The position numbers were made by a program, and so were the translations under genes. A stretch of DNA of 61,847 nt from the NCBI GenBank assembly GCA_040389385.1, contig JAZKAA010000001.1, positions 1 through 61,847 on the forward strand. The letters run 5' to 3'. The first letter of the stretch is position 1. Each line of letters starts with the position of its first letter. Origin of the DNA: Patescibacteria group bacterium (lineage in GTDB: Bacteria > Patescibacteriota > Minisyncoccia > Phycocordibacterales > SBAW01). Below are positions 3,001 through 27,817 of the stretch, piece after piece. Below the pieces are notes generated by a model. It had not been told where the DNA came from, searched no databases, and saw only the letters and a list, made by a program, of their open reading frames with translations.

Positions 3001-6000
3001 CTGCCATCTGGGCACAGTCCGGCATCTTTGCCTCCTCCACCTCGCACTTTGTCTCGGCAGACTTTTCTACAGGTGCGACATCGAGCGCCTTCGCCATCTC
3101 AAACATTGCCTCGGGCAATATTCTCAAAACCACTACGGGAGGCTCACTGGTTGCTGCAGTAGCAGGCTCTGACTACATCACTGGTGCGGGACTTGCGGCA
3201 GCCTTTCCATTCACCGCAACCACCAACTTTGGCACTACCGCCAACTCCACCTCGACCGCCATCTGGTTCCAAAATGGCCTGCAGGCGTCATCAACCGCGC
3301 GCCTCTCTGATATCTCGACCATTGGTATCCTCAACTTTGCCTCGACCACCTTCAACGCCTCCTCTACCTTGATAAGCATCAATGGTCAGAGCTTCCTCTC
3401 TGCATCTACCTCGGCAACAGTACGAAATCTCTTTTTGGGGCTTAGTGCAGGGTCAAATGTCCGTAGCTCCACCAACTCCACAGGTATAGGATATAAGGCC
3501 CTCTTTAACGCGACCTCCTCCTCTGCAGTCAATAACACCGCTCTCGGTGCCGAAGCCCTCGCGGGGAATGCCAACGACTCGAGCGGGGGATATAACACGG
3601 CTGTTGGAACTTTTGCACTCCACTCAAACTCAAGCGGCAGCACTAACACAGCCATAGGAGCCGGAGCCCTGCAGTTTAATTCAAGCGGGGCAAATACTAC
3701 CGCCCTAGGCGCTTTCGCGGGTGGTCAATCAGGTGGTTCAAACGATACATTTGTCGGTGCAGGTACCGCGCTACTCAGCTTTGGTGATAGGAGCACAGCT
3801 GTAGGAGCAGCCGCTTTGTATGGCGACTATGGTGAGGGCGCACCCAATACAGGCGCCGGGCCGGACAACACTGCAATTGGGTACTCCGCGGGAGGCTTTA
3901 TAGACGGCGGCTATGGTAACACAACGCTGGGCTCTTACGCAGGGCAAAATGTCATCACCGGGTATAACAACATACTTGTTGGCTACAATACACTTGCCAC
4001 CTCATCGACGGCAGTCAACACGCTCAACATCGGCAACTTTATCTTCGGCAATTTGCCGGCCACGACCTCGTCGGCCACCAAAAAACTGACGCTACCGACG
4101 ACCGGCTCGCTCGGCGTCGGCACCTCGTCGCCCTTCGCCAAGTTCTCCATCCACTCCAACAACGGCGACACGGCGACAACACTCTTTGCTATAGGGTCCT
4201 CGACTGCGTCGGCAACGACGACACTCTTTGCTATCACCAACACCGGCACTATCGACACGGCCCTCACCACGGGCTGCGTGCAGTCCGACTCCTCGGGCAT
4301 CTTGAGCTCTACCGGTGTTGCCTGCGGTTCCGGCGGCGGTAGCTATCCTTTTGCTCTCACCGGCAATGCAACCTCCACCTTGACCCAATTTAATGGGGGA
4401 CTCACCGCCTTTGCGTCCTCCACCATCGGCAACGGCACGCAAACGGGCGGGCTTACCATCAGCGGCGGGGCGACAACGACGGCGACTTCGACACTCGCTG
4501 GACTCATAGTAAACAGCGGCAATGTCGGCATCGGCACTGCGTCCCCACAATCAGCATTAGAGATTGACGACAACAGCGGTGGTAGCCCGCATTATCTACT
4601 ACGATTGGTTAATACCTTTGTAGGGGGAGGCCCTCAGGAAGGAATATTGTTTTATGGACCAAATAGTACAAACCCCGCAGACAGGAACTGGGCGAATAAT
4701 ACTAATGTCAACCAAGAGGGCGACTTTGCGATATTTAGCTCCGCTGACAACACCAGCCTCCCCGTTTCGTCGAGCGGCACAAAATTGGAGATATTGAGTA
4801 ATGGTAATGTCGGTTTAAATAACGACAGAAATCCGGGAGTTACACTTTCTGTGGCATCCGGCAACGCCCAAATCGGTTATGCAGCAGGGCAGACAGCCCC
4901 GTCGAATGGTTTGATAGTCAGCGGCAGCCTCGGTGTCGGCACCTCGACGCCGTGGGGCAAGTTCTCTATCAATAACTCCACGAGCGACACAGGCGGTCAG
5001 CCGCTGTTTGTGGTTGCATCGAGCACCGCCACGGCCACGACGACCCTGTTTAGCATCAGCAACACCGGCTCGGTACTTATTGGGACGAGCACTAATACAA
5101 CACTCTCCGCAACCAACCCTGCCTTTGTTACTATCGATTCCGGCACTGCAACGTCAGAAGAGGGCCTTGCGGTCTTGGGCAATGTCAACGACTTTTATGA
5201 GATGAACGTCAAAAATCTTTCAAGCGGTTCGGCCGCGCAGTCGTGCGTCACCGCCACCGGCAACACCGGCACGCTCACCACCAACTTCCTCTCCGGTTGC
5301 GTCAACAGCACCACCTTTAATAACCCGCAGCCATACAACGCGGGCTTTGCCGGCGACTCCAACCTTATCTCCCTGGCCAACAACTTTTATCTCGCGCAGG
5401 GCACTTCGGGCAAAAATACCTTCATCCTCAACGGCGGGGTGGGGACATCTTCAATTGCTATAGCTATCTCGAGCACCAACAACAATGTCGGCATCGGCAC
5501 TACCTCGCCGTTTGCCAAGTTCAGCATCCAGGCCACGAGTACCGAAACAAACACGACACTCTTTGCTATCGCTTCTTCAACTGCGTCGGCAACCACGACA
5601 CTGTTTAGTGTCAGCAACACGGGCACTATTAATCTCAAGCTGGACGCATCGACTTCCACACTCGCCACCTTTGCGGGTCAAACCTTCCTCACCGCGTCAA
5701 CCACGGGCTTTAACACAGGGCTGGGCCTTAACAGCTTGTCCAAGACAACAAGCGGTTCCCAAAACGTCGGGCTTGGGTATTCTGCACTCGGCCAACTTAC
5801 GACTGGGACACAAAATACTGCGATTGGTAGCGGAGCACTTAGCGGCAGTGCAATAAGTGGAAGCAATAACACAGCGGTCGGCTACAATTCGATGGCGACG
5901 GCGAATTCAGGTAACGCAGACAACACTACTCTCGGCAGTGTTACAGGTCAAAATATTTTCGGTAGCCGCAATATAGTTATCGGCTCGAACGCAGGATTTG

Positions 6001-7997
6001 ATCTCAACGCCGCTAGTGGCAACATAGTTATAGGCGCATACGTTGATGCGGCCAATAACAATGCTAACGCGCAGCTCAATGTTGGAAATGTGCTCTTTGG
6101 CACCGGGCTCTATAACAGCACCACGGCCTCGGGTGCGGCTGTTACCAACGGCAACTTGGGCGTCGGTACGTCATCACCCTTTGCGCAGTTTTCTATCCAC
6201 GGCATCAACGGTAGTACCAACACGACGCTCTTTGCTGTCGCCTCCTCAACCGCCACGGCCACCTCGACACTCTTCTCTATAACAAATACCGGCAGCGTTG
6301 CGCTCGGCACCTCTACACCGTGGGCCTTGTTCTCTCTACAGGCGTCCACAACCAACATGATTGCAGGTCAGCCGCTCTTTGTGGTTGCATCCTCGAGCGT
6401 TAGTGGCAGCAGCGTCGCCACGCTCTTTAAGATAGACAATATAGGCAACGTGGGTATCAGCTCCACTTCACCAAACACGCTGCTTTCCGTCGGAGGCAAC
6501 GCTTACTTTGGGACCGGCACCGGGTCGACGCTTACCTTCCACGCAGGCACCATCAACTACCCCGTAACATCAACATCCACGATACTCAATCAGGCCAACA
6601 GCTTCTCCATCGCCACCTCGACCGCCGCAGGCAACGGCCCTGTCTTCTCCATCTCCGGCAACGGCGCAACGTCAACGATTATGTTCTTTGGTGCGACGTC
6701 TACGCTGCTCAACGTCGGCGGTGCGAGCGGCGTTACCGGTGCTGCTGCGACATTGCGCAACTACCTCATAGTCGGCGACGGCAAGACCAACGCTTCAGTC
6801 GCTATAGTCAAAGGCTCGCTCTGTGTCGACAGTGACGGATGGTGCGTCGCGTCAACGACACAGGCTGGCGGCGGCGGTGGCTCGATAGCCGCGCGCGACT
6901 CGGTGCGTGTGGGCAATACCGACTTGGCCGAAATGTACGTCTCTTCTACGACGCTCAACAAAGGTGACATCATTGCTACCGACGGAGGCTTTGCTATCAG
7001 GGCTGCACAGGGCGACACCAAACACAAAGTCATCGGTATTATATCCAGCGACCCGGGACTCGTGCTTGGCGCAGCGCCCGACGACGACGGCAGAAACAAA
7101 TATCCGGTAGGCTTGGCGGGACGCGTACCGGTCAATGTGTCGCTGCAAAATGGCCCGATTGCCGTGGGCGACCGTATTACACTTTCCTCTACGCCGGGCG
7201 TCGGTATGAAGGCAGGTCCGTTTGACGCCTCGGTGGGTATCGCGCTCGAGGCATACGACGGCACGGCGACCAGCAGCGTGCTCGCCTTCCTTACCCTGCA
7301 GCAGGGGACTGATATTGCGGCTATTTCGCAAGCGTTGCTCGGCACCACTACTCCCACGAGCACGCCGGCGTACGTCTCGGCCAGCATCCTTGGCTCGGCC
7401 AGCGACGCACTGCGCTCGGTGCTCGACGATACTTTGGCGGGCTTTGCCTTGCTCGGCCAAAAGGGCGTGCGCATGATGGGTGATGTGATGGCTGCGAGCG
7501 TGGGTATATTTGACAAGGTGTTTGCCTCGCATGTGTACGCCGACACGGTTACTGCCCACACGTTGTGCTTGGGCGATACCTGCGTCGACGAGCAACAACT
7601 CAAGGGCCTGCTCAACGCAACCAGCACACCGCAGCCCGACCCGGTAATGTCTGACCCGACACCTGTTATAGAAATAAATGGCAATAACCCGGCATATGTA
7701 CCGCTCCATGCCAGCTACAGCGACCTGGGCGCCATTATCACCGGCCCGACAGACGCAGACCGCAACTTGGGAATCAGCCTTTTGCTGGATGGGGTAGCGG
7801 TACCCTCTATATATATAGACACCGCCACCACAAGTGAGTACTGGGTAACCTACCGTGCGACCAACCAAGGGGGGTTTGTCGGCGAGGCACGCCGCAAAGT
7901 AGTGGTGTATGACCCCAACTTTGGTCAGCCGGACATGGGTACGGCAACCTCGACGGACCCCGGCGACACATCAACCAGTACACCTCCTACGCCATAA
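1..7997 (+). CDS. Giant repetitive cell-surface/adhesin-like protein, 5'-partial (>2649 aa)
   Basis: The frame of the GTG at 48 stays open back to the window edge and ends at TAA 7995-7997. It has at least 8 copies of a ~50-aa module (G-N/S-V/L-G-I/V-G-T-T/S-S-P-F-A-K/R-F/L-S-I ... TTLFAI.SST..ATTTLFS-I/V-SNTG). Three blocks of N-x-A-I/V-G-x-x-A-L repeats look like Hep_Hag/YadA-head repeats. Composition is Thr/Ser/Gly/Ala-rich. The C-terminus resembles a tail fibre (see findings). Confidence 0.85.
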   Translation, partial: LSANQIVYTNNAKQEVSVATGTVAAGTGITVTGNQYIIGSGLTITNTIGYPFVGNATNTLIAFNGGLSSASTTLTGNFVFANATGTNATTTNFAVTGTASTTALIVSNAGGVAGCATFDTVGTISNTHTACGSGSSSYPFALTGNATSTLTQFNGGLTAYASTTIGSGTQIGGLTISGGATTTGNSYLAGNVGIGTQPDAVGALNVGGAVNLTMQTNAFNTTSIYTALVIGSTTGASAGNGGLYAIGRFNKANEPFAALSGWDDASNRQLYFGGGGWQTPEATEQFFYTATTYNENNNAALKRGYLAADGSVYWGGSITATHGGTGATLSILGTGNVGVGTTSPLALLTVATPPGATGSVGNLFMVASSTPTATTTLFSVSNTGSTTLFQIPSALLTTNAAGTIVGTSSLGVAYGGTGSTTLGAILAGGGSSIYSVATGTVAAGTGITVTGNQYIIGSGLTITNTIGYPFTATNNATGTLTQFNGGLTAFASSTIGNGTAGLTISGNSTTTGNSYFASNVGIGTTSPFARLSIHANNGDTATTLFAIGSSTATATTTLFSILNTGNVGIGTSSPFAALSIYATASSTNRTLFAIASTSNVAGVFSTSTLFSISNIGVINTNPSGTTSVLTMNGQNFLTGSLRVGGFGSVYLGVDAGASDPGPTGNVFSNVGIGYQALTAVTGIGGAGGTENVAIGSGVLGNLTGTTGGGNSNVAIGDGALGSATGADGNSSHDSNNVAVGISALSINKGGSDNTAVGLIALKLNITGNENVAIGEGASQNNLSATSTVAIGLNAAAGGDFINHYNAQGYTVVGYQAGASIRTGSDYNTLIGYKAGSSVTTGFANLVLGTSQTASNLTTGSGNILIGNNAFATTSGSGNGLNIGGLVFGQLPATSTAFKLPTSGSVGVGTSSPFAKFSIHSNNGDTATTLFAIGSSTASATTTLFSISNTGTIHTSLVSCDTIDADSNGNLLCGTDQTSTGAANPFTWSTNYNVVTAATSSAIWAQSGIFASSTSHFVSADFSTGATSSAFAISNIASGNILKTTTGGSLVAAVAGSDYITGAGLAAAFPFTATTNFGTTANSTSTAIWFQNGLQASSTARLSDISTIGILNFASTTFNASSTLISINGQSFLSASTSATVRNLFLGLSAGSNVRSSTNSTGIGYKALFNATSSSAVNNTALGAEALAGNANDSSGGYNTAVGTFALHSNSSGSTNTAIGAGALQFNSSGANTTALGAFAGGQSGGSNDTFVGAGTALLSFGDRSTAVGAAALYGDYGEGAPNTGAGPDNTAIGYSAGGFIDGGYGNTTLGSYAGQNVITGYNNILVGYNTLATSSTAVNTLNIGNFIFGNLPATTSSATKKLTLPTTGSLGVGTSSPFAKFSIHSNNGDTATTLFAIGSSTASATTTLFAITNTGTIDTALTTGCVQSDSSGILSSTGVACGSGGGSYPFALTGNATSTLTQFNGGLTAFASSTIGNGTQTGGLTISGGATTTATSTLAGLIVNSGNVGIGTASPQSALEIDDNSGGSPHYLLRLVNTFVGGGPQEGILFYGPNSTNPADRNWANNTNVNQEGDFAIFSSADNTSLPVSSSGTKLEILSNGNVGLNNDRNPGVTLSVASGNAQIGYAAGQTAPSNGLIVSGSLGVGTSTPWGKFSINNSTSDTGGQPLFVVASSTATATTTLFSISNTGSVLIGTSTNTTLSATNPAFVTIDSGTATSEEGLAVLGNVNDFYEMNVKNLSSGSAAQSCVTATGNTGTLTTNFLSGCVNSTTFNNPQPYNAGFAGDSNLISLANNFYLAQGTSGKNTFILNGGVGTSSIAIAISSTNNNVGIGTTSPFAKFSIQATSTETNTTLFAIASSTASATTTLFSVSNTGTINLKLDASTSTLATFAGQTFLTASTTGFNTGLGLNSLSKTTSGSQNVGLGYSALGQLTTGTQNTAIGSGALSGSAISGSNNTAVGYNSMATANSGNADNTTLGSVTGQNIFGSRNIVIGSNAGFDLNAASGNIVIGAYVDAANNNANAQLNVGNVLFGTGLYNSTTASGAAVTNGNLGVGTSSPFAQFSIHGINGSTNTTLFAVASSTATATSTLFSITNTGSVALGTSTPWALFSLQASTTNMIAGQPLFVVASSSVSGSSVATLFKIDNIGNVGISSTSPNTLLSVGGNAYFGTGTGSTLTFHAGTINYPVTSTSTILNQANSFSIATSTAAGNGPVFSISGNGATSTIMFFGATSTLLNVGGASGVTGAAATLRNYLIVGDGKTNASVAIVKGSLCVDSDGWCVASTTQAGGGGGSIAARDSVRVGNTDLAEMYVSSTTLNKGDIIATDGGFAIRAAQGDTKHKVIGIISSDPGLVLGAAPDDDGRNKYPVGLAGRVPVNVSLQNGPIAVGDRITLSSTPGVGMKAGPFDASVGIALEAYDGTATSSVLAFLTLQQGTDIAAISQALLGTTTPTSTPAYVSASILGSASDALRSVLDDTLAGFALLGQKGVRMMGDVMAASVGIFDKVFASHVYADTVTAHTLCLGDTCVDEQQLKGLLNATSTPQPDPVMSDPTPVIEINGNNPAYVPLHASYSDLGAIITGPTDADRNLGISLLLDGVAVPSIYIDTATTSEYWVTYRATNQGGFVGEARRKVVVYDPNFGQPDMGTATSTDPGDTSTSTPPTP

Positions 7998-8188
7998 AAC
8001 GTTGTGGTAATTGAACATCTCGGCTAAGCGAGGCATTATTTTTTTGCAATGATAAAGTTAAGTCCACCCACCTCCTTGAGTTTTTTTGGTTGCTTGGGAC
8101 TCCACCTACGACCCTGCACAACAGAGTGCCAATCTGAAATGAAAGCCAATTGAGTTAGTCACACTTTGGCCATATATAGAGCCGCCAT

Positions 8189-11100
8189 ATGGCTTTACCG
8201 CGGTACAATTTAGCTAAGCAGCACATGATTTTTTTAAAGCACTTACATAAGCTCACGCGCCGGGAGTTACATACTCTTGGCGGCTTGTGCGCCGGCACCT
8301 CTTTTTTGTTGTTTGTTGCGTTGGGTATATCGGGCAACTTTCCTAATCTGCCGGAGTCGTTAAAACTTGTGCTCAGTCAACAAGGAAACGCGCAAACGGC
8401 TACGGTATATAACAGCAGCACAAGCTACACAGTGCCGCCGGGCGTAACCAGCGTATATGTGCAGGTATACGGCGCCGGCGGAGGAAACGATTACAGCAGC
8501 ACGTTTGCGGGTTCGTGTGGCGGCTACGGCGTATACATTAACGGCAACGGTCCCGGCGCCTCCGGTGGCTACACCAATGGGATGATACCCGTCACTCCGG
8601 GCCAGGTGCTTAGCGTTGTTGTCGGTACGGTCAATGGGGGAGGTGCGCCCGGTGCCGGTCCGGGCTACGGCGGCGGGTACTCGGGCGTGTTTGACGGTAA
8701 CCCACAACAGTCGACTGCGCTCATGGTGGCCGGCGGCGGCGGCGGCGCGGGTAGGTATGTGGTGATAGCAAACTATGCCGGATACTGCGGTATCGGAAAT
8801 GCCGCCGGATCGGCTCCCGGCGCAGGAGGAGGAGCAAACGGTGCGGGTACCGGGGTGCTGACGGGCGGCGGCGCAGGCGGATATGGTGGAGGTGGTGGTG
8901 CCGGCTACTATGGAGGTGCGGGCGGTCAGAGTAGCGGCACAAACGGCAGCGGCGGCGCAGGTGGCTCCGGCTATTGCGCGCCAAGCCTCGCCAACTGCAC
9001 AACATCCTCAGGTGGCGGCGCGGGAGCGGCCGGCACTGGCTCGGTATCCATTGTGCCAAGTACCGCAGTGCTCAGCATTTCGGCCACGCCGCAGTCGGTC
9101 GCTGCGGGCGGTACCTCCAACATCGCGTGGAATGCGACCGGCGTCGTTGCCAATAGCTGCACTATCTCAAGCGGACAAGGCCCGCTTGGCTCGCAGGGTC
9201 TCGGCACTGACGTCTCGGGCAATGGCAGCCACTTTGCACTTGGGAACATCAGCGCCCAGGACCAGGTGAGCGATACACCCACCAACAGCTTTGCGACGCT
9301 CAACCAAATATATTACTCCATACAGACCTACTCCAAAGGCACCGTGCAAGACGCGGGCCTCGCGGCTAATGGCGGCTATGGCGCCGCTACCGGCTGGCAG
9401 CTTACCTCGGGCAAGTGGTATTGGGAGTATGCAGTGCAGCCGGGTGCTAAATCCGGCGGCTGGCCAATAGTGGGAGTATTTAAAGACACCACGAGCGGCT
9501 CAGCATATCGGTTGTATCCAGGGCATAACAATGACGACGGCATAGGCTACGGCGCTGACGGGACTACCTACTTTGACACCGGAAGCCGCGGTACGCTTGC
9601 ATCCTTTACCGCTGGTGACGTCATCGGCGTCGCTTACGATGCCGACACGGGCAAGGTCTACTTTTCTAAAAACGGGACGTGGCAAAACAGCGGCAACCCT
9701 ACGGCCGGCACAGGCTATCTCGCGATTGTAAAAGGCGGTTACCCGGGCCTTTCGAGTTATTACGGTAAGACGATAGTTAACTTTGGGCAACTCGCCGCCG
9801 TAACCTCCGCCCGCGTCTATTCTATCCCCGGCATCTACGCCTACGCGGTTCCGGTGGGCTACTCATCTATTACAGTGTCGGTCGCGGGAGCGGGCGGCGG
9901 CGGCACGGGTGGTACCGCCAAAATCAACTGCGACAAGTACAACAATTGCGTTTACCAGCCGGGGTCAGCTGGCGCCGGGGGTACCGCTAGCGCCTTTTAC
10001 GCCACGAACGCCTCCGGCGGCGGGGGAGGCGGCGTCAACGGCGGCGCAAGCGGCGGCGACACCAACACGGTCGCCGGTGGCGCGTCCGGCGGTGCCGGCG
10101 GTGCCGGTAGCGGCGGCACCGGGGGCGTCGGCGGCAATGGCGGCTTGGCCGTTAAAACCTACGGAGTGGGAGTTTTGTCCGGCAATATACAGGTTGTCGT
10201 AGGTTCCGGCGGTGCGGGTGGCGGTGGCGCTTGCAATGCTAAAGACAAATACAACAATTGCATTGGCTATGAGCCAGCGGGAGCCGCGGGTGCCAATGGC
10301 GCAGTCACCATCCAAGCCACGGGAGCACCCACCACCGGGGGAGGAAACTTTTACTTCCCGCCGCCGAGCGGGTACAACGCGATTTCGACCGCCAACTTGC
10401 CCGCGCCGGCGGTGGCCCAGCCTGCAAACTACTTTGGCGCCACCACCTACACCGGCACCGGCCAGAGCCCGCAGACTGTCGGCGGGCTTAACTTTGCTCC
10501 TGACCTGGTCTGGATTAAAAATCGCGCCGGTGCCTTTTGGAACACGCTCTCCGACACAACCCGCGGACCAAACAGCGACCTCTTTAGCAACAGCACTAGC
10601 GCGGCCACACCCAATGACGCCAACGGCTGGCTAAGCTCCTTTAGTACCAACTCGTTTGCAGTCGGGGGGCAGTGCAGCGCACTCTCCGGCAACACTAACC
10701 TCATCGGCAACAATTATATTTCCTGGGCGTGGAAAAAGTCTCCCACAAGCGGCATGGACATTGTCTCCTATACCGGCGACGGCACGAGCAACCGGAGCAT
10801 CGCCCACGCGCTCGGCACGACGCCCGACTTTATTATGGTGAAGCGTACCGACAACACCGGCGATTGGTTTGTATGGAGCTCGGCCATGGGCTCAAACAAC
10901 TACCTCAAGCTCAATACCCAGGACGCGGCCAGCACCGTCAACTCGCCGTGGGGCGTGGCGACGATGAGCACGACCAACTTTACGGTCACGGCAAACGCGA
11001 CCAACAACGCCAACCTCGCGGGCGCCAATTATGTAGCCTATCTCTTTAGCAATCGCGACGGCTTCCAAAAAAGCGGCAGCTACGTCGGCAACGGCACCGC

Positions 11101-14100
11101 CGACGGGCCGGTCATCTATACCGGCTTTAAACCCAAGTTTGTAATGATACGCTCATTGCAAGCGGGCAACTTGGAGTCTTTGATGTACGACTCGTCACGC
11201 GACACGTCTAATCCAGCAACTCATTATATAAGTGCGGGTTTTAACTCTACGGGCGTTGAGCTCACAAGCAGTGGAGATATCGATATTCTTTCGAACGGTT
11301 TTAAAGTGCGTAATACGACCTCGTCAGGAAACAACTCAGGTCAGACGTTCGTTTACATCGCCTTTGCCGATGTGCCGTTTAAGTCGGCATCGGCGGCCAA
11401 TGGTTACAGCGTCCCCAACTCGGCACGGTTTGACGCGAGCAACAATGCCTACTTATCGCACACCAACACGGCTGTCGGTGCGACCACCAAAGGCACCGTC
11501 TCGTTTTGGATGAAGCGGGGGAGTATCTCGGGCAGCCGCATGAACGTGCTTAGCGCTGGCAACAACGCAGAGATGATAGGCCCGAGCAATGACTCAAACG
11601 TGGACACACTGTGGGTGCGCCTTGCCAACGGCTCCGACATGAACTTTGGCGGTACGGCCTCCAACATGGCCAAGCTACGCGACCCCACTGCCTGGGACAA
11701 TATAGTAGTAGCGTGGGACACGACACAGGCAACCGCTGCAAACCGCGTGCATGTCTACCGCAATGGTATTGAGCAACCGCTCGTCGCCGGCACGTATCCT
11801 GCGCAAAATGCCACCGTTTCTCTTTTTAACAGTGGGGTAGCTGCCAACATCGGTCGCGACATTGCTAATGCGGCATACTACTTCGACGGCAATCTTGCCG
11901 ACTTCTATGCCGTTGATGGCTCGCAGCTGACTCCAAGCAGCTTCGGCGCAGCAGACTCCAACGGCTTTTGGAAGCCCAAGGCTTACAGCGGCACCTACGG
12001 CACCAACGGCTTTTATTTCAACTTCCAAAACGCGCTCAACATGGGCGCTGATGCATCGGGTCGCGGCAACAACTTTACTCCCAACAATATTTCCGCGGTT
12101 GACCAAATGCCCGACACACCGACCGACAATTACGCGACGCTCAACCAAAACAATTATTACTCGGGCTACCCCAAAGGCGTTGTGCAGGGAGGAGGCCTTG
12201 CGGCTAACGGCAATTATGGCACCGTGGCAGACTGGCAGCTCACAACAGGCAAGTGGTACTGGGAGAACGTTATCGGCGGCTCAAACGGCGGCTGGCCTAT
12301 GCCCGGCGTCTTTAGCGATCCGACCAGCGCCGTCACAGGCAGAGCATATCCGGGGCACTCCAACGACTACGGGTTCGGGTACTTTCAATCGGGGACTGTC
12401 TATAGTAACGGCTCACCCCAACCGGCTGTCGTATCTCCCTTTAACAACGGTGACATCATCGGTGTCGCCTACGATGCTGACACGGGCAAGGTCTACTTTT
12501 CTAAAAACGGCGTGTGGCAAAACAACGCCAGCCTGAACCTAATACCCACGATGACGGGGCAGACGACCTCCGGCGTCACCATAACCGACTCGACTGAGTA
12601 CAGCACCGACTACTCGGCATGGCGTACCGCCGACCGCAACTCGGGCTCCGGCTGGGACGCGTACCCCACGCCACCTAGCGTCGCCGCGCCACAGTGGATG
12701 CGCACCGACTTTGGCGCATCTAACGGCAAGACGGTCGGCTCCTACTCGATACAAATCTGGCCCGCTGTGGGCTCCTACGACCCGCTCGACTTTGCGCTCG
12801 AGGGCTCCAACGACTCCGCCACCTGCTCGGCGGGCAACGGTACGGCCGGCAGTACGTGGACTATTCTTGACATCGAGACAAACGCTCTCTGGAGCTATGC
12901 CTCTCAGGCACAGACCTTTTCTGTGCCGGTCGGTAACCAAGCGAGCTATCGCTGCTACCGCCTTAAGGTAACGAGAAGCAACGGCAACTCGCAGCTGCTC
13001 ATATCAGAGTTTGGCCTCTACGTGGCTACAAGTCCTAACCCTGCTGTTGACGGGAGCGTGAGCCCTGTCGGCACCGTGACCAATGGTTGGCCCGGACTCG
13101 CGAGCTACTACGGCAAAACTACGGTCAACTTCGGCCAAGGCTCGCCCACGACACTGTTTGGAGATGCCTCAAACTACGGGCGCGTCCTCTTACCTGTCGT
13201 GGGTCAGCCAACGCCATCAGGCACCATCGTTAAGCTTGGCTCGGCAAGCGGGTTCTTTAATGGTTTAAGCGCGCTTACTTCGCCGCAAAGCAGCGAGCTC
13301 AACATGTCCGGCGACTACACTATAGATTTGTGGGCGTATCCGACATCGCTAGGCACAAGCGGAGGGCTCGTTTCGCGCGACTATAGTGCCGGCTACACCC
13401 CGTACCTTGTATATCAAAGTGGCAGTACCTTTACCTTTTACTCTTCAGCAGTTGGTGGTGACTGGTCGATAGCCTCAGCACAACCGATTTGTACAGGGGT
13501 CACTATAAACACCTGGTACCATTTGGCAGTGGTGCGCTCGGGCAATACGTACCGCACCTTTTGCAACGGTACGCAGACCGCAACCTGGAGCTCGGCCGCA
13601 ACGCCATGGGCCGCGCCCTATCCGCTGGTGCTGGGCAGGCAGGCCACCGGCGGACCCTACTTTGTGGGCTATCTCGATGAAGTGCGCATAAGCAACACCG
13701 CGCGTTGGACATCCAACTTTACGCCGCCTACAAGCGCCTACTCGAGCGATGCCAACACGCTCTTCTTGGCGCATATGGACAACGAGCGCAGTAGCTTTTA
13801 CAAGAGCGCGTCCGACGGTTACTTTGCCTACACGCCGCCGAGCGGCTACAAAGCGCTCTCGACCAATAACTTGGCCGCACCTGCAATAGCCAAGCCATCC
13901 AACTACTTTGACGCCAAAGCCTACAGCGGCTCGGGCGGCTCTCCGAGCTTTGACCCGATAAATAAAGACAGCTTTATAACGCTGTCCAACAACAACTTCG
14001 ACGCAAACTCCTCAACCAACACCTACTGGAACACGCTCTATGGCACCAACAGCTTCTCTGCAGGCAAATGGTATGCGGAGTTTAAGATAGGTGCGGCCTA

Positions 14101-17100
14101 CTCAAACACCATCGGCATCGGCGATGCCACAAAGCGTCTCACGGGCACGGCCTCGCAGCAGCTCGGCCAGTTTGCCAACGAGTACGCTTACAACCCGGAG
14201 AACAATCGTTTGTACAGCAACAATGTAATAACCAGCGGCTATCCAACAGTAGTGGCGGGGGATGTCGTGATGGTCGCGGTTGATATGGACGCGGGCTTGA
14301 TATGGTTCGGCAAAAACGGAGCGTGGTTTAACAGCGGCAATCCGGCGACGGGCACCGGTGCTCAGTTTACCGGGGTAACCGGCTCGAAGGTTTTTGCGGC
14401 TTCGTTGCTTGCGGGCGACGGTACTCTCCAGGCCGAGTTTGGCCAAAGTGGCCGCCCTGGTAGCACCAACTACCCGGCTGCGGGAGGCAACTTCTGGTAT
14501 CAGCCACCGACGGGCTTTTCCGCGCTCGCGGCCCAGGGCGGCGCGCAGGAGATAGGACTCAGCTTCCAGCCCGACCTGGTGTGGATCAAAAACCGCACGA
14601 CAACATACTGGAATACGCTGGTCGACTCGCTGCGCGGGGCGGGGAGAGATGTATTTTCCAACAGCACCTCTGCGCAGACCTTTAATGACACCAACGGCAC
14701 GGTTAGCGCCTTTACACCCAGCGGTTTTACGGTGGGCGGCAGCTGCACCGGTGCCGGCGGCGGCAATGTTAACACTCTCAACAGCACTTACAGCGCATGG
14801 CTCTTAAAGGAGTCGCCCGCGGCGGGCTTTGATATCGTAAGTTACACCGGCAACGGCACCACCAACCGCTCCGTGGCGCAGGCACTCGGTACGACGCCCG
14901 ACTTTATCATCACCAAGGCCGTCAACGCCATCGGCGATTGGTTTGTCTACGACAAAGCGATGGGGGAGAGCAGCTTTGCCAAGCTCAACACCACCGACGC
15001 ACAAAGCGAGGTCTCCTCGCCGTTTAGTATCGACCTCATTCCCAAGATGACTGCTGTCACAACCAACGGGGTTACAATGAGCGGTGGTGGCAACTCAGGC
15101 GTGTGCGAGTATCAGGCGGCGTGGCATGCCGGCGACAAAATTGTAGCACCGAGCGATTATTGGGATGGCTACAACTCTACTACTCCCTCGCTCTGCACTC
15201 CCTCGATTTCAAACCCTGTGTGGCTCAAGGTTGACTTTGGTACGGCAAAAACCGCCACGGCTTACTCTATCTCGTCATTCCAGTATCCGTCGGTGTACTA
15301 CGACCCAATAGATTTTACTCTGCAGGGCTCCAACGACAATACCGCATGGACAACGCTCGACACCCAAACAAGTGTAGGTTGGACTCCGTTTGAGTCGAAG
15401 ACCTTTACCGTCGCAACCCCCGGCAGTTATCGCTACTATCGCGTCAGCACCACCCGCATTGGCGCTGGCGGCAACGAATTTATAATCCAAGAGCTGCACC
15501 TCTATGGCGCAGGGACGCTCAATACCGCGTCCAACTTTGTTGTCTCGGGCGCGCTCAACACCGCCTCTACCAACTACATCTCCTACCTCTTTTCCAACCG
15601 CGAGGGGGTACTCAAATCCGGCATTTACAACGGCAACAACTCCACCGACGGCCCCTTTATCTACACAGGCTTCAAACCCAAATGGGTGATGATTAAGGAT
15701 GTTAGTACGGGCAACGCCTACACGCATTGGAGCGTATATGACAGCGCACGGGACCCGAGTAACCCGCTCACAAAAATGCTCTACCCCGATGCCGCGCTGG
15801 TCGAGGGGAACGACGGCTACTGCAGCACGGCAAATTGTCCGATAGACTTTCTTGCAAACGGGTTTAAGGTTCGCTCCGGCGGGTATTGGAACACCAACTA
15901 TCAACCAGAAGCATACGCCTATATCGCCTTTGCCGACGTGCCGTTTAAAGAGAGCGCCGACACCAGCGTGTCGACTATCCCCTATGCGTTGCGTTTTAGC
16001 GCCAACAACAGCGACTATCTCTCACACAATTTTGCGCTTGCCTCCACCGACGCCAAAAAGGGCACCGTGAGCTTCTGGCTTAAACGTGCAGCGATAAACG
16101 GGGGCTGGCAGTTCCTCTATGGCGGTTCAGGGGGCATATATCTGGACCCGAGCGACCACATACGCATATACGACGCGGCGTACGACATATACAGCACTCA
16201 GACTTTCCGCGACCCATCGCAGTGGATACACTTTGTGTTTGCGTTCGACAGCACTGCCGCGGCCGGCCAGCGCGTCAAAGCCTGGGCCAACAATGTGCCG
16301 CTCACCTTCACGGCATATGCGGAGCCGGCGGCAAACGCGCCGTTCAACATCCTATCTACCGGTGCGCGCGCCTTTGGTATGTCGGGAGGGACTAATTACC
16401 CCCTCGACGGCTACCTCGCCGAGGCCAACGTGGTCGACGGGCTGGCGCTCGACCCGAGTAGCTTTGGCCAGTACGACGCCAATGGAGTGTGGAAGCCCGC
16501 AACCTACGGCGGGCAATATGGCGTCAACGGCTTCCATCTCAATTTTGCCACGACTGCCGTCAGTACGCCCACCAACAGCGGCAATGTGACGGTTGGGCCG
16601 CTTTTCAATACGAGCACCTACACCCTGCAGTGCCAACCGCTGCCGGGCGAGGGGAGCGGGTACCTATCCAAGAGCACCACGGTTACCGTCTCGCCCAACC
16701 TGGTGCAACTGAGTGCCTGCAACAGCTTGGGGAGCTGCTCAACCAATAGTGCATCGTCGGTGTATATCACTCCCAACACTTCGGCACTCCTCAGCTGGAA
16801 CGCCCCCACTGCGGATGCAAACTCCTGCACAGTTACATCGCTTGCGGCGGGTGTAAGTGGGACTATCAGCCCCGCCAATACCAACAGCGCAACCAATGTC
16901 ACGAGCCCGGCCGTCAACGCCAATACCACCTATACGCTTACCTGCCAGATAAACGGCACGCCGGCCACTGCAAGTGCCGCGGTGAGTGTCCAACAAGCCT
17001 GCGCAAGCTCGGGCTCCACGCTCTCCTGCGCTAACCAATGCGTCTTTACTTCCGACTCCGTCAACGCGCCGGCGACATTGTCGTGGTGCTGCCCGACAGG

Positions 17101-17521
17101 CTCCGCGGTGGGCACCGGCTTCTCTACCGGCGGAGCCACCAAAGGCTCGACAAACGTAACCGACAACGGCACGTACGGATTGCAGTGTCCGACCGGGAGT
17201 GGCTCGGTAACACTCGCCGGCGTAGCGCCCGCGGTAACTAACCCGCTGGTTGCATCTCCCACCCGTGTGCGCAAAGGGGGGACTACGTCGCTCTCGTGGA
17301 GCGTAAACTCGCTGAGCCCCGGCACCTCCTGCTCGATAACCCCTGCGCTCAGCAATGGCATGGCCGTATGGGACGGCTCGGGTACCTCATGGACCGGCAC
17401 AAACGTGCGCAGTCTGCCGATCAATAGCCCCACCAAATTTACGCTTACCTGCACCAACGGCAGCGGCACCGTCAGCGCCTCGGCCAGTGTCGGCCTGCTT
17501 CCGACGTTCCAGGAGATTTAA
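8189..17521 (+). CDS. Giant (3110 aa) membrane-anchored multi-domain recognition protein: glycine-rich x2, SPRY x3, LamG/concanavalin-like x3, discoidin x2, C-terminal Ig-like repeats
   Basis: Single uninterrupted ORF with an N-terminal hydrophobic span (GGLCAGTSFLLFVALGISG). SPRY signatures: GKWYWE.. followed by IGVAYDADTGKVYFSKNG.WQN. Discoidin-like signatures: W.(R/K).DFG ... DP.DF.L.GSND ... YR.YR. LamG-like signatures: GTVSFW.KR ... DG.LA.....DG.L.PSSFG, and WYHLAVVRSGNTYRTFCNG...YLDEVRISN. The glycine-rich domain starts Y.VP.GV.S..V.V.GAGGG. Confidence 0.85.
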   Translation: MALPRYNLAKQHMIFLKHLHKLTRRELHTLGGLCAGTSFLLFVALGISGNFPNLPESLKLVLSQQGNAQTATVYNSSTSYTVPPGVTSVYVQVYGAGGGNDYSSTFAGSCGGYGVYINGNGPGASGGYTNGMIPVTPGQVLSVVVGTVNGGGAPGAGPGYGGGYSGVFDGNPQQSTALMVAGGGGGAGRYVVIANYAGYCGIGNAAGSAPGAGGGANGAGTGVLTGGGAGGYGGGGGAGYYGGAGGQSSGTNGSGGAGGSGYCAPSLANCTTSSGGGAGAAGTGSVSIVPSTAVLSISATPQSVAAGGTSNIAWNATGVVANSCTISSGQGPLGSQGLGTDVSGNGSHFALGNISAQDQVSDTPTNSFATLNQIYYSIQTYSKGTVQDAGLAANGGYGAATGWQLTSGKWYWEYAVQPGAKSGGWPIVGVFKDTTSGSAYRLYPGHNNDDGIGYGADGTTYFDTGSRGTLASFTAGDVIGVAYDADTGKVYFSKNGTWQNSGNPTAGTGYLAIVKGGYPGLSSYYGKTIVNFGQLAAVTSARVYSIPGIYAYAVPVGYSSITVSVAGAGGGGTGGTAKINCDKYNNCVYQPGSAGAGGTASAFYATNASGGGGGGVNGGASGGDTNTVAGGASGGAGGAGSGGTGGVGGNGGLAVKTYGVGVLSGNIQVVVGSGGAGGGGACNAKDKYNNCIGYEPAGAAGANGAVTIQATGAPTTGGGNFYFPPPSGYNAISTANLPAPAVAQPANYFGATTYTGTGQSPQTVGGLNFAPDLVWIKNRAGAFWNTLSDTTRGPNSDLFSNSTSAATPNDANGWLSSFSTNSFAVGGQCSALSGNTNLIGNNYISWAWKKSPTSGMDIVSYTGDGTSNRSIAHALGTTPDFIMVKRTDNTGDWFVWSSAMGSNNYLKLNTQDAASTVNSPWGVATMSTTNFTVTANATNNANLAGANYVAYLFSNRDGFQKSGSYVGNGTADGPVIYTGFKPKFVMIRSLQAGNLESLMYDSSRDTSNPATHYISAGFNSTGVELTSSGDIDILSNGFKVRNTTSSGNNSGQTFVYIAFADVPFKSASAANGYSVPNSARFDASNNAYLSHTNTAVGATTKGTVSFWMKRGSISGSRMNVLSAGNNAEMIGPSNDSNVDTLWVRLANGSDMNFGGTASNMAKLRDPTAWDNIVVAWDTTQATAANRVHVYRNGIEQPLVAGTYPAQNATVSLFNSGVAANIGRDIANAAYYFDGNLADFYAVDGSQLTPSSFGAADSNGFWKPKAYSGTYGTNGFYFNFQNALNMGADASGRGNNFTPNNISAVDQMPDTPTDNYATLNQNNYYSGYPKGVVQGGGLAANGNYGTVADWQLTTGKWYWENVIGGSNGGWPMPGVFSDPTSAVTGRAYPGHSNDYGFGYFQSGTVYSNGSPQPAVVSPFNNGDIIGVAYDADTGKVYFSKNGVWQNNASLNLIPTMTGQTTSGVTITDSTEYSTDYSAWRTADRNSGSGWDAYPTPPSVAAPQWMRTDFGASNGKTVGSYSIQIWPAVGSYDPLDFALEGSNDSATCSAGNGTAGSTWTILDIETNALWSYASQAQTFSVPVGNQASYRCYRLKVTRSNGNSQLLISEFGLYVATSPNPAVDGSVSPVGTVTNGWPGLASYYGKTTVNFGQGSPTTLFGDASNYGRVLLPVVGQPTPSGTIVKLGSASGFFNGLSALTSPQSSELNMSGDYTIDLWAYPTSLGTSGGLVSRDYSAGYTPYLVYQSGSTFTFYSSAVGGDWSIASAQPICTGVTINTWYHLAVVRSGNTYRTFCNGTQTATWSSAATPWAAPYPLVLGRQATGGPYFVGYLDEVRISNTARWTSNFTPPTSAYSSDANTLFLAHMDNERSSFYKSASDGYFAYTPPSGYKALSTNNLAAPAIAKPSNYFDAKAYSGSGGSPSFDPINKDSFITLSNNNFDANSSTNTYWNTLYGTNSFSAGKWYAEFKIGAAYSNTIGIGDATKRLTGTASQQLGQFANEYAYNPENNRLYSNNVITSGYPTVVAGDVVMVAVDMDAGLIWFGKNGAWFNSGNPATGTGAQFTGVTGSKVFAASLLAGDGTLQAEFGQSGRPGSTNYPAAGGNFWYQPPTGFSALAAQGGAQEIGLSFQPDLVWIKNRTTTYWNTLVDSLRGAGRDVFSNSTSAQTFNDTNGTVSAFTPSGFTVGGSCTGAGGGNVNTLNSTYSAWLLKESPAAGFDIVSYTGNGTTNRSVAQALGTTPDFIITKAVNAIGDWFVYDKAMGESSFAKLNTTDAQSEVSSPFSIDLIPKMTAVTTNGVTMSGGGNSGVCEYQAAWHAGDKIVAPSDYWDGYNSTTPSLCTPSISNPVWLKVDFGTAKTATAYSISSFQYPSVYYDPIDFTLQGSNDNTAWTTLDTQTSVGWTPFESKTFTVATPGSYRYYRVSTTRIGAGGNEFIIQELHLYGAGTLNTASNFVVSGALNTASTNYISYLFSNREGVLKSGIYNGNNSTDGPFIYTGFKPKWVMIKDVSTGNAYTHWSVYDSARDPSNPLTKMLYPDAALVEGNDGYCSTANCPIDFLANGFKVRSGGYWNTNYQPEAYAYIAFADVPFKESADTSVSTIPYALRFSANNSDYLSHNFALASTDAKKGTVSFWLKRAAINGGWQFLYGGSGGIYLDPSDHIRIYDAAYDIYSTQTFRDPSQWIHFVFAFDSTAAAGQRVKAWANNVPLTFTAYAEPAANAPFNILSTGARAFGMSGGTNYPLDGYLAEANVVDGLALDPSSFGQYDANGVWKPATYGGQYGVNGFHLNFATTAVSTPTNSGNVTVGPLFNTSTYTLQCQPLPGEGSGYLSKSTTVTVSPNLVQLSACNSLGSCSTNSASSVYITPNTSALLSWNAPTADANSCTVTSLAAGVSGTISPANTNSATNVTSPAVNANTTYTLTCQINGTPATASAAVSVQQACASSGSTLSCANQCVFTSDSVNAPATLSWCCPTGSAVGTGFSTGGATKGSTNVTDNGTYGLQCPTGSGSVTLAGVAPAVTNPLVASPTRVRKGGTTSLSWSVNSLSPGTSCSITPALSNGMAVWDGSGTSWTGTNVRSLPINSPTKFTLTCTNGSGTVSASASVGLLPTFQEI

Positions 17522-17551: not shown

Positions 17552-18118
17552 ATGAACTTCAACACTGGCAGTTTTGGCGACATGAGGAGGAGAAAGGCAC
17601 TTGTACTCGTCGCGGCGGTAGTGTTAGTGGTCGCGCTCGGGCTTGCGTGGTACGCGACACACCGGGCGCCTCCCGGCCCGGAGCCGACGACGTTTTTTGA
17701 GTGCAGTCATATGTACAAAGTGCAGGAGGGCTCGCCCCGCGTCTGCCGCACGGCCAGAGGTAATACGTTTTATGACTACCAGGGCAACCTACCCGCTTTT
17801 GCCGGCAGTATCCGGATTACGAATCTCCCGCCGGCGCCGGTAGTAACTGCCTCTCCTATAGTGGTGCAAGGCGAGGCAACGGCAGACTGGTACGTCAACG
17901 GAAGCTTTGCCGTAGAGCTTGTCTCCGGAGCGGGCGCGGTCGTTGGGAAAGGGCAAGCTACAGTGCAAAAAAAGGTTCCGGGGCCCGCACTCTCTGAAAA
18001 CGTGTCTCCTTTTGCCGTATCGATATCCTTTGACGCCCAAAAGCCCGGCACACCGGGGGCGCTGGTCTTTAAAAAGGCCGACGGCAGCGCCAGCATGGTG
18101 CTCCCCGTGGCGTTTTAA
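17552..18118 (+). CDS. Membrane-anchored protein with Gmad2-type Ig-like domain
   Basis: N-terminal TM span (LVLVAAVVLVVALGLAWY). The C-terminal part, ITNLPPAPVVTASPIVVQGEATADWYVNGSFAVELVSGAGAVVGKGQATVQ, resembles the Gmad2 immunoglobulin-like domain as recalled. Confidence 0.6.
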   Translation: MNFNTGSFGDMRRRKALVLVAAVVLVVALGLAWYATHRAPPGPEPTTFFECSHMYKVQEGSPRVCRTARGNTFYDYQGNLPAFAGSIRITNLPPAPVVTASPIVVQGEATADWYVNGSFAVELVSGAGAVVGKGQATVQKKVPGPALSENVSPFAVSISFDAQKPGTPGALVFKKADGSASMVLPVAF

Positions 18119-25680: not shown

Positions 25681-26309
25681 TAAAAATAATCCCTGCAGTA
25701 TTGCCCAAAAGTTGGGGCCAGCTTACAGACGACCTCAATAAGCTCGTTGGTGTGGCCACTATGGTGCAGCTAGACGTGGTTAAAAATATTTTTGACGGAC
25801 ATGAGTCACCACCGCTCTGGGAGGAGTTTGATTTTGAGTTTGATATTTATCTCGAGCCGGGCGAGTTTGTAGAGCGCGCACTCGAGTTGGGCGCGTCGCG
25901 CATTGTTGTACATACGCGGCACGCTACGGCGCGCGCTGCGCTCGAGCTCTTGCAGCCGCAGCGCGGCGGCGAGTTTGCTATGGCGGTTGGTGTAGCACTC
26001 CGGCCTACTGATACGCCGGATGTACTTATACCATACGCGGGGCTCTACGACTTTGTGCAAGTAATGGGGATAGACCACGAGGGCAATCAGGGCGAGCCGT
26101 TTGATAGCGCGGCTATTAGTCTTGTACGCGCGCTGCGCACTGCGCAACCGGAGCTTTTTATACAAGTAGACGGCCACGCTGCGGGACACGAGCAGGAGTT
26201 GGCGGCGGCCGGCGTTAACTCATTAGTAGTGGGCTCGGCAATTCTGACAGCAGAAGACCCAAAGGCTGCGTACAGGACGTTGTACAATAAAGCCAATGGC
26301 TCTCACTGA
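25677..26309 (+). CDS. Ribulose-phosphate 3-epimerase-family barrel protein (divergent)
   Basis: The central block DFVQVMGIDHEGNQGEPF and the C-terminal block VDGHAAGHEQELAAAGVNSLVVGSAIL parallel Rpe (D.VL.MSV.PGF.GQ.F and VDGG......aGA...V.GSAIF). The N-terminal H-x-D-x-MDG metal motif is replaced by Q-L-D-V-V. Confidence 0.55.
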   Translation: MIKIIPAVLPKSWGQLTDDLNKLVGVATMVQLDVVKNIFDGHESPPLWEEFDFEFDIYLEPGEFVERALELGASRIVVHTRHATARAALELLQPQRGGEFAMAVGVALRPTDTPDVLIPYAGLYDFVQVMGIDHEGNQGEPFDSAAISLVRALRTAQPELFIQVDGHAAGHEQELAAAGVNSLVVGSAILTAEDPKAAYRTLYNKANGSH

Positions 26310-27153: not shown

Positions 27154-27155
27154 CG

Positions 27156-27172: not shown

Positions 27173-27176
27173 TAAT

Positions 27177-27812: not shown

Positions 27813-27817
27813 TAAAA

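Follow-up and report, generated by a model that had tools for sequence, protein, structure and literature searches.

A giant Patescibacteria protein assembled from phage-type receptor-binding modules and two DUF7483 domains, a candidate adhesin

The window analysed here, a stretch of 61,847 nucleotides from a Patescibacteria group bacterium, carries a complete open reading frame (8189..17521, + strand) that encodes a giant protein of 3110 aa. This protein consists of about 17 modules of sugar-binding type, belongs to a recurrent and unstudied family, and is fairly likely to be a multivalent glycan-binding adhesin for host attachment.

The way in which ultrasmall Patescibacteria find and hold their hosts is poorly understood, and candidate adhesins are wanted for experiments. 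The locus described below offers a conserved, fast-evolving candidate gene as well as a concrete link to phage receptor-binding modules. The practical gain is modest for now, because the organism is uncultivated and because lectin-rich giant proteins of CPR bacteria are already an accepted idea.

Modules of the giant protein

The open reading frame previously delimited from the sequence is real and starts with ATG; use of an alternative start, Met13, would lead to a product of 3098 aa. From the N- to the C-terminus, the protein includes a glycine-rich, a putative Ig-like, a SPRY, a second glycine-rich, a DUF7483 and a LamG module, followed by a SPRY domain carrying an inserted discoidin domain, a LamG domain, a DUF7483 carrying both a SPRY and a discoidin domain, a LamG domain and putatively Ig-like repeats. 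Three modules are nested, i.e. SPRY domain 3 and discoidin 2 within the second copy of DUF7483, and discoidin 1 within SPRY domain 2. No family was matched when the whole 3110-aa protein was scanned against NCBIfam, and comparison of the whole protein with PDB sequences gave only one match, a weak one, to a ryanodine-receptor SPRY structure.

The best profile matches in the whole protein correspond to two copies of DUF7483 (PF24299, gathering score 27 bits). These are the strongest feature of the protein and fill the stretches that the sequence-only reading had left unassigned. Copy 1 (10340..11386, +; aa 718-1066) is uninterrupted and scores 280.3 bits (aa 744-1063, profile positions 1-330). 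Copy 2 is split into a linker and first strand (13814..13948, +; aa 1876-1920; 60% identical to aa 719-761), repeats 1-2 (14495..15100, +; aa 2103-2304) and repeat 3 (15503..15958, +; aa 2439-2590), the latter containing the best PF24299 stretch (profile positions 195-330). Taken together, the pieces score 228.6 bits and the phmmer matches are colinear. The architecture of the giant protein is organised around DUF7483.

DUF7483 is made of three homologous beta-sandwich repeats of ~105 aa, which hhalign relates to one another at 99.1, 98.1 and 96.6%, and copy 1 was modelled by AlphaFold with a pLDDT of 86.8 and a pTM of 0.88. As judged from the repeat comparisons and the model, DUF7483 is an internally triplicated, single-chain, all-beta domain. 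It did not match any PDB sequence, and Foldseek comparison of the model with the PDB gave weak matches (TM 0.24-0.28) to PLP1 APC-beta, an adiponectin single-chain trimer and the PCSK9 C-terminal domain, which hint at a three-subdomain beta assembly and not at homology. DUF7483 gathers about 28,000 clusters (27,856 at 50% identity) and has no solved structure, and a literature search found no paper naming it. The locus would give its first structural description, that of a predicted pseudo-trimer that tolerates nested insertions.

All three SPRY domains proposed from the translation score above the Pfam cut-off (PF00622, gathering score 26.3 bits), and the GKWYWE/GKWYAE motifs are found in the giant protein. 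SPRY domain 1 (9266..9796, +; aa 360-536) scores 45.1 bits (match ~aa 409-498) and is 58% identical to SPRY domain 2. The N-terminal part of the latter (12107..12526, +; aa 1307-1446) scores 35.4 bits (match ~aa 1355-1446), and its C-terminal strands, located past the insertion (13076..13138, +; aa 1630-1650), are 76% identical to aa 514-534 of SPRY domain 1. SPRY domain 3 (13976..14458, +; aa 1930-2090), which interrupts DUF7483 copy 2 after its first strand, scores 34.4 bits (match ~aa 1960-2086), covers profile positions 1-120 of 121 and matches the SPRY structure of a ryanodine receptor (PDB 6kim, E = 0.004). The usual ligands of SPRY domains are proteins or peptides, not sugars.

Three LamG-like domains are also present, as had been proposed, and all three are Laminin_G_3 (PF13385, gathering score 27.6 bits). 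Two of them are copies of one type, called type A here. Copy 1 of type A (11411..12040, +; aa 1075-1284) scores 39.7 bits when scanned alone, and copy 2 (15986..16546, +; aa 2600-2786), 37-47% identical to copy 1, reaches exactly the cut-off with 27.6 bits (~aa 2607-2750). The type-B domain (13256..13768, +; aa 1690-1860) scores 81.1 bits (match aa 1695-1839). All of the 19 relatives of the type-A domain that were tested match PF13385.

Among the two discoidin (F5/8 type C) domains claimed earlier, the second (15056..15496, +; aa ~2290-2436), which separates repeat 2 from repeat 3 in DUF7483 copy 2, lies above the gathering scores of both PF22633 (34.9-38.1 bits vs 27.8 bits) and PF00754 (30.2 bits vs 28.2 bits). 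The discoidin-like domain 1 (12527..13072, +; aa 1447-1628), inserted inside SPRY domain 2, falls below the cut-off with PF22633 (18.2 bits, E = 0.004) and scores 11.5 bits with a second discoidin profile; its assignment is putative and comes from its similarity to discoidin 2 (36% identical, E = 1e-20). It also matches phrog_16348 and phrog_17517.

The two glycine-rich domains exist as segments and have an N-terminal motif in common, but their family assignment is weak. Domain 1 (8384..9064, +; aa 66-292) scores 14.3 bits (E = 0.043) with Gly_rich_2 (PF21722), whose gathering score is 24.3 bits, and hhalign relates them at 94.5% but over 65 N-terminal columns only. This domain matches phrog_863 (2e-8), and its AlphaFold model, built from a 4-sequence alignment, is unusable (pLDDT 45.2). 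Domain 2 (9794..10336, +; aa 536-716) was delimited by composition and motif and matches no family, either in Pfam at E <= 10 or with hhalign. A profile iterated from relatives failed owing to composition bias, and a further database search with the glycine-rich domain yielded one match amid a mass of low-complexity candidates.

The C-terminal tail (16547..17518, +) comprises 3-4 degenerate Cys-containing repeats with the motif LSW...SC...YTLTC. The repeats announced by the sequence-only reading are borne out by their alignments (T2 vs T4, z = 6.0; T2 vs T3, z = 3.2), whereas the Ig-like fold attributed to them stays putative, the repeats matching no Pfam family at E <= 10. A single repeat of the same type (9050..9223, +; aa 288-345; z = 3.4 vs T2/T4) is found near the N-terminus and is kept in the orthologues P0002, P0004 and P0005.

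The N-terminus carries a predicted signal-anchor or transmembrane helix (8276..8341, +; aa ~30-51) preceded by basic residues. Hydropathy peaks there at aa 29 (1.87 over 19 residues), and the predictions of membrane topology and of signal cleavage both come from hydropathy. This anchor would put all the modules outside the cell. The hydrophobic segment is also present in the orthologues P0002-P0016. In contrast, the phage-type relatives P0018-P0030 are devoid of it and have a different N-terminus in common. Anchoring by a sortase through an LPXTG motif was considered and rejected, since the C-terminus (...GLLPTFQEI) shows no sorting signal, transmembrane segment or basic tail.

Chromosomal locus and orthologues

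The locus is part of a cellular chromosome and not of a prophage. The genes of the window include those encoding GAPDH, transketolase, GyrB, DnaE, aminoacyl-tRNA synthetases and SMC as well as rpe, and this gene content, with a split transketolase, fits Patescibacteria. Comparison with PHROGs identified no phage gene near the locus, and the 62-kb window contains no phage structural, packaging or lysis gene.

Five contigs (L001, L002, L003, L086 and L087) show the same gene order, i.e. giant gene, GAPDH, rpe, transketolase, and the closest loci are recorded as Adlerbacteria (62% in DUF7483), Saccharibacteria and Kaiserbacteria. Directly downstream of the giant gene, a partner gene (17552..18118, +) encodes a membrane-anchored protein of 188 aa that weakly matches Gmad2 (Ig-like); the same position is filled in L001-L003 by a 188-190-aa gene (35-45% identity), and in L086 and L087 by a gene for a signal peptidase and an ORF of 320 aa instead. 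On the other side, a neighbouring gene separate from the giant ORF (48..7997, +) encodes a repeat-rich putative surface protein of 2649 aa, and L086 and L087 likewise show a giant ORF upstream of the homologous gene. In relatives, the orthologous gene is bordered by IS200/IS605 transposases.

Compared with the syntenic loci, identity amounts to 65-81% for the flanking GAPDH and transketolase and to 32-68% for the modules of the giant protein; on these identities, the giant gene diverges faster than its neighbours. Furthermore, module counts differ among orthologues, modules are swapped, the glycine-rich modules are absent in P0002 and P0004, and the gene is split in two in L002. The gene was also considered as a DGR target, and this was rejected since blastn of the window against itself revealed only old internal repeats, 68-76% identical, and no template/variable-type pair.

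These data bear on two other roles that could be proposed for the protein. Together with the 2649-aa repeat protein, it could form an envelope or S-layer-type scaffold, protective or spacing, whose modules would bind polymers of the cell's own wall. A structural role in the envelope is conceivable because the type-A LamG profile matches the structure of an S-layer-domain protein (4qvs, E = 9.7e-5); moreover, two giant putative surface proteins stand in tandem, here as well as in L086 and L087, and the location beside housekeeping genes across relatives suggests a constitutive function. However, a protein with a purely structural lattice function would not be expected to gain, lose and swap modules or to diverge well above its neighbours, phage receptor-binding proteins use these very modules, and profile scans found neither SLH nor any other wall-anchoring domain in the giant protein. 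The scaffold is an unlikely explanation.

The protein could also be a non-catalytic array that captures glycans, supplying a nutrient-poor cell with environmental poly- or oligosaccharides independently of any specific partner cell. Although the ConA-like and discoidin folds are frequent among carbohydrate-binding modules and glycolysis and pentose-phosphate genes lie directly downstream, the synteny of these sugar-metabolism genes with the giant gene may be fortuitous and the fast turnover of modules points to a function in an arms race or in specificity. No glycoside hydrolase, lyase or transporter domain was found in the giant protein by Pfam and NCBIfam profile scans. Such an array is quite unlikely.

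Phage counterparts and proposed role

In phages, LamG3, SPRY and discoidin domains serve as lectin modules in tail fibres and virion proteins (PMC7824862). The modules of the giant protein match the phage families phrog_19943, phrog_27411, phrog_24898 and phrog_863, and phrog_19943 displays LamG, LamG, SPRY and DUF7483 in the same order as the giant protein. The annotation of some of these counterparts is tail fibre, or else structural protein of the virion. In 70 records of cultured phages, DUF7483 forms the C-terminus of tail-module proteins, and it is also found in a T4-like structural module. Phage proteins carrying DUF7483, such as CYYG_00029 of Cyanophage SS120-1, gp16 of Methylophilales phage MEP301, phrog_19943 and phrog_24898, use the same module types as the protein of the window, i.e. 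Laminin_G_3, SPRY, DUF7483, discoidin and glycine-rich. Their DUF7483 is 33-38% identical to that of the window, and the predicted folds superpose, the model of copy 1 finding structural matches in BFVD with TM 0.7-0.88.

The phage proteins nevertheless differ from the giant protein in several respects. They are ~780-1450 aa long, have no N-terminal hydrophobic segment, are encoded in tail/structural modules and end with DUF7483, whereas the 3110-aa protein of the window is chromosomal, predicted to be membrane-anchored, and carries DUF7483 twice, internally and with nested insertions. In a comparison of 341 DUF7483 domains, nearest-neighbour identities show that those of anchored proteins are closer to one another than to the non-anchored, phage-type ones. 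These differences make it extremely improbable that the gene belongs to a phage or prophage, or was recently captured from one, and still serves as a tail-fibre gene in a virion or tailocin. The phage annotations of some counterparts and the transposases beside the orthologous gene would fit this origin. However, the 62-kb window lacks any phage gene module, the chromosomal position is conserved in the five related contigs, and an anchor is predicted at the N-terminus; the prophage hypothesis was rejected.

An episymbiotic lifestyle is typical of Patescibacteria. As an adhesin, the giant protein would be fixed by its N-terminal signal-anchor in the membrane of the Patescibacteria cell and would expose outside the cell ~3000 residues of beta-sandwich modules, of the types that occur in the tail fibres and receptor-binding proteins of tailed phages. 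It would bind glycans on the surface of another cell in a multivalent, low-affinity manner and would thereby allow an episymbiotic cell to attach to its host and recognise it, and specificity may be retuned over evolution by swapping modules or inserting them at fixed loop positions. That the protein is exposed at the surface, binds glycans and acts in host attachment is inferred here. The content of the protein (3 SPRY, 3 Laminin_G_3 and 2 discoidin domains) and its predicted anchor fit the multi-specificity recognition platform imagined by the sequence-only reading, the binding itself being predicted.

CPR genomes encode many lectin-type surface proteins that are thought to mediate attachment (10.1101/2025.02.25.640227), and the epibiotic growth of a saccharibacterium requires envelope proteins with glycan-binding domains (PMC10633639). 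These envelope proteins of Southlakia epibionticum (Saccharibacteria), essential according to Tn-seq, and the CPR lectins are extracytoplasmic and carry lectin-like domains, as predicted here, and targeting of host glycans for adhesion has been proposed for them as it is for the giant protein (PMC10633639; 10.1101/2025.02.25.640227). However, they harbour VCBS, dockerin and FN3 domains and not SPRY, DUF7483 or LamG3, and the likeness drawn here is functional only. Free-living or non-attached lifestyles are also possible for this lineage (PMC11665869).

Displayed phage-type modules could alternatively act as an anti-phage decoy or shield, occupying or masking the cell's own receptors or trapping phages. 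The set of modules common with phage receptor-binding proteins and the fast evolution would suit such a function, but literature searches revealed no known precedent and a 9.3-kb gene is costly in a reduced genome, which makes this explanation very improbable.

Going beyond the adhesin proposal, one may very tentatively suggest that episymbiotic Patescibacteria and tailed phages draw on a single pool of receptor-binding modules (DUF7483, SPRY, LamG3, discoidin and glycine-rich), that the GAPDH-adjacent locus is a host-range determinant, and that its specificity is reprogrammed by cassette-like insertion at fixed DUF7483 loops. The cell would then recognise its partner as a phage recognises its host, and of the insertion loops on the pseudo-threefold DUF7483, one would follow the first strand and the other would separate repeat 2 from repeat 3.

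Distribution of related architectures

SPRY domains had initially been regarded as rare in bacteria, and three of them together with the other domains in a single protein as unusual. The rarity argument finds no support, since the modules are documented in phage fibres and the same combination of Pfam families is found in 84 long homologues. The module set is thus common, and only the exact order of 17 modules is unique, because the next best homologue matches about half of the giant protein at 49-51% identity. A literature search combining SPRY and Patescibacteria found no relevant link.

Complete genomes of Kaiserbacteria and Moraniibacteriota encode signal-bearing giants that combine DUF7483 and SPRY with LamG or discoidin domains (1952 aa in CP066682.1 and 3249 aa in CP175956.1, respectively). 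These two proteins and P0002, P0003, P0004 and P0011 resemble the protein of the window by their N-terminal anchor or signal, their Pfam families and a super-repeat SPRY, LamG3, DUF7483, LamG; furthermore, the genes of P0002, P0004 and P0011 are also located beside GAPDH, rpe and transketolase. Identity with the protein of the window is 38-51% and extends over at most half of the protein. Among the Patescibacteria giants, the protein of the window alone has two glycine-rich modules in unit 1 and a long Cys-repeat tail, whereas additional discoidin, Kelch or C1q modules, or a division of the gene in two, are seen in the others.

Eukaryotic adhesion and recognition proteins with SPRY/B30.2, laminin-G or discoidin domains belong to the same Pfam families but associate them with unrelated domain partners. 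The prokaryotic and phage versions are lectin-type fibre modules, and eukaryotes acquired the domains (PMC7824862). As a minor observation on the relatives, the Peribacteria locus L045 displays few ORFs under genetic code 11.

Domain composition and nesting of the giant protein

The ORF at 8189..17521 (+) starts with ATG and runs uninterrupted over 3110 codons, as had been read from the sequence alone; it is also called as a gene in the NCBI record (65-kb contig), with 3110 or 3098 aa. Its product is a member of verified Pfam families. Indeed, in a Pfam scan of the complete 3110-aa protein and ten in-frame segments, all three SPRY domains proposed by the sequence-only reading exceed the cut-off of 26.3 bits (SPRY1, aa ~409-498, 45.1 bits; SPRY2, aa ~1355-1446, 35.4 bits; SPRY3, aa ~1960-2086, 34.4 bits). 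The three LamG-like domains, which that reading had divided into two types, are also real: LamG-B (aa 1695-1839) scores 81 bits against Laminin_G_3, LamG-A1 39.7 bits and LamG-A2 (aa ~2607-2750) 27.6 bits, exactly the cut-off, and all 19 sequences of an alignment of the type-A domain with 18 relatives match Laminin_G_3. Therefore, all three belong to one Pfam family. As for the two proposed discoidin domains, the second (aa ~2325-2423) matches both F5_F8_type_C and F5_F8_type_C_2; the first (aa 1447-1628) reaches only 18 bits alone, below the cut-off, and is 36% identical to the second (E = 1e-20).

The two glycine-rich segments exist, but their family assignment is tentative: the first scores 14.3 bits against PF21722 (Gly_rich_2; cut-off 24.3 bits) and the second has no match in the Pfam search. 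A profile-profile comparison of the glycine-rich domain gave 94.5%, spanning the first 65 columns only, and an AlphaFold run on a 4-sequence alignment gave a pLDDT of 45. Likewise, the C-terminal tail carries three to four degenerate Cys-containing repeats (z = 6.0 between units T2 and T4) but matches no family, so that calling it putatively Ig-like is a guess. The NCBIfam scan of the protein matched no family. Furthermore, two copies of DUF7483 (PF24299), one at aa 744-1063 (280 bits) and one split (229 bits), were absent from the initial domain list.

Masked self-comparison and domain-by-domain phmmer searches gave the following order: a hydrophobic anchor (aa ~30-51), the first glycine-rich domain, one Cys repeat, SPRY1, the second glycine-rich domain, DUF7483 copy 1, LamG-A1, SPRY2 with discoidin 1 inside, LamG-B, DUF7483 copy 2 with two interruptions, LamG-A2 and the Cys-repeat tail. 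Three modules are nested within others. The final strands of SPRY2 (aa 1630-1650), 76% identical to aa 514-534 of SPRY1, come after discoidin 1; in DUF7483 copy 2, SPRY3 is inserted behind the first strand (aa 1876-1920) and discoidin 2 lies between repeats 2 and 3. Relatives reuse identical insertion sites, and the site behind the first strand is there often filled by a Gly_rich_2 domain. As the internal DNA repeats of the gene are only 68-76% identical, the duplications are old; a DGR was rejected on this low identity and on the lack of any template/variable pair.

DUF7483, a module shared with phages

The AlphaFold model of DUF7483 (21-sequence alignment) is confident and all-beta (pLDDT 86.8, pTM 0.88), and a unit of ~105 residues is repeated three times within the domain (hhalign between repeats, 99.1, 98.1 and 96.6%). 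Sequence searches found no solved relative, and Foldseek against the PDB returned only weak matches (TM 0.24-0.28), namely the PLP1 APC-beta domain, an adiponectin single-chain trimer and the PCSK9 C-terminal domain. As these are three-subdomain beta assemblies, DUF7483 may be a single-chain pseudo-trimer.

Among predicted viral structures, many phage proteins match DUF7483 with TM 0.7-0.88. The domain occurs in 70 cultured-phage records, including pelagiphages, cyanophages, roseophages and one methylophage, and forms the C-terminus of a ~780-aa tail-module protein in both records examined. An exhaustive profile search retrieved 27,856 clusters (50% identity), many of the best matches being ~1100-1450-aa proteins with the copy at their C-terminus; the literature search found no paper mentioning the family. 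DUF7483 loci are also found on 27-169 kb contigs of archaeal MAGs, namely L017, L036 and L042 (Methanosarcinales) and L024 and L032 (Nitrosopumilus); they may be cellular, proviral or the result of mis-binned phage contigs.

The module set is common in phages and CPR, and the argument that the architecture is rare falls; what is unique is the exact order of the 17 modules.

Giants with a predicted anchor at a conserved chromosomal locus

The window is cellular chromosome: it carries genes for GAPDH, rpe, a split transketolase, GyrB, DnaE, aminoacyl-tRNA synthetases, SMC and one tRNA, and the PHROGs search around the giant ORF found no phage genes. The nearest homologues (P0002, 49% identity; P0004, 43%; P0011, 38%) all lie at the equivalent locus, on contigs of 108-853 kb, in the order giant gene, small membrane protein or signal peptidase, then GAPDH, rpe and transketolase. 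The related genomes are assigned in their records to Adlerbacteria, Saccharibacteria, Kaiserbacteria, Nomurabacteria and other Patescibacteria. Between the window and the syntenic loci, identity is 65-81% for the flanking GAPDH and transketolase and 32-68% for the giant-protein modules; entire modules differ between orthologues, and one genome has the gene split into 2135 + 1501 aa. IS200/IS605-type Y1 transposase genes adjoin the orthologue of the giant gene in three of the relatives (L001, 3032-3679 and 17574-18224; L002, 22507-23199; L086, 7340-8008) and could aid module or gene turnover.

The N-terminal hydrophobic segment is kept in all anchored relatives. Signal-bearing giants are also found in complete genomes of Kaiserbacteria (1952 aa, with DUF7483, SPRY and LamG) and Moraniibacteriota (3249 aa; L049, CP175956.1, 2978-12727), the latter joining DUF7483 and SPRY to discoidin, Kelch repeats and a C1q-like domain. 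The protein belongs to a group of anchored Patescibacteria giants that recurs but is undescribed, and whose module repertoire is wider than its own.

Another class of homologues (P0018-P0030) has no hydrophobic N-terminus; these proteins begin with a conserved motif of another kind and have DUF7483 at their end, and one of them, P0020, is located in a T4-like structural module. In its mode of action the giant protein would resemble a phage receptor-binding protein, yet it carries an N-terminal anchor and lies outside any phage structural context, and the rival reading as a functional phage fibre was rejected on both points. DUF7483 domains of anchored proteins are closer to each other (identity 0.55-0.83) than to non-anchored ones (0.41-0.59), a pattern that speaks against recent transfer from phage to cell. 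The phage-type class is exemplified by the T4-like phage contig L085, where 5582-15424 encodes two adjacent DUF7483 proteins without N-terminal anchor (1275 + 1807 aa), with gp13/gp14/gp15-like genes and a terminase gene nearby.

The protein is best read as a multivalent surface binding protein anchored in the membrane, which would project outward from the cell and most likely recognize and attach to surface glycans of another cell. Topology, ligand class and the part played in host attachment are inferred, whereas the domain families and their nesting, the hydrophobic N-terminal segment, the synteny, the turnover of modules and their sharing with phages were observed directly. In phage tail fibres, LamG3, SPRY and discoidin serve as lectin modules (PMC7824862); lectin-type surface proteins, to which a role in attachment is ascribed, are numerous in CPR genomes (10.1101/2025.02.25.640227), and epibiotic growth of a Saccharibacterium requires envelope proteins that carry glycan-binding domains (PMC10633639). 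Rival readings would make the protein an S-layer-like scaffold, a glycan scavenger or an anti-phage decoy. More novel, and in our opinion rather improbable, is the proposal that phages and episymbionts share one set of recognition modules, which would be inserted like cassettes into a DUF7483 scaffold at a conserved locus that determines host range.

Neighbouring genes

The gene at 17552..18118 (+), which starts 30 nt past the stop of the giant gene, encodes a membrane-anchored protein of 188 aa that weakly matches Gmad2 (Ig-like). This position is likewise filled in L001, L002 and L003 (35-45% identity), and the protein may be a partner or accessory of the giant one.

Directly upstream, 48..7997 (+) encodes a 2649-aa Thr/Ser/Gly/Ala-rich protein with about ten long repeats ('GIGTTSPFAKFSIH...TLFAIGSSTASATTTLFSISNTG'), which matches only a Bact_surface_Ig-like domain at its C-terminus and, weakly, a tail-spike PHROG. 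Its GTG start is tentative because no hydrophobic N-terminus follows. In L086 and L087, a giant ORF (2017-2560 aa) occupies the corresponding position upstream of the orthologous gene. Between the two giant genes of the window, a terminator-like hairpin with a T-run at 8018..8043 (+) suggests that they would be separate transcription units.

The transketolase (26296..28964, +) is split into an N gene (26296..27153) and a pyrimidine-binding/C gene (27969..28964), between which lies an unannotated 216-aa ORF (27162..27812), and GC drops locally to 0.48; an intervening ORF is present in L001 and absent in L002, and the halves are adjacent in L086. Finally, a 377-aa protein (40544..41677, -) joins a PheRS alpha catalytic core (tRNA-synt_2d) to a C-terminal FDX-ACB anticodon-binding domain, a single-chain layout as in mitochondrial-type PheRS.
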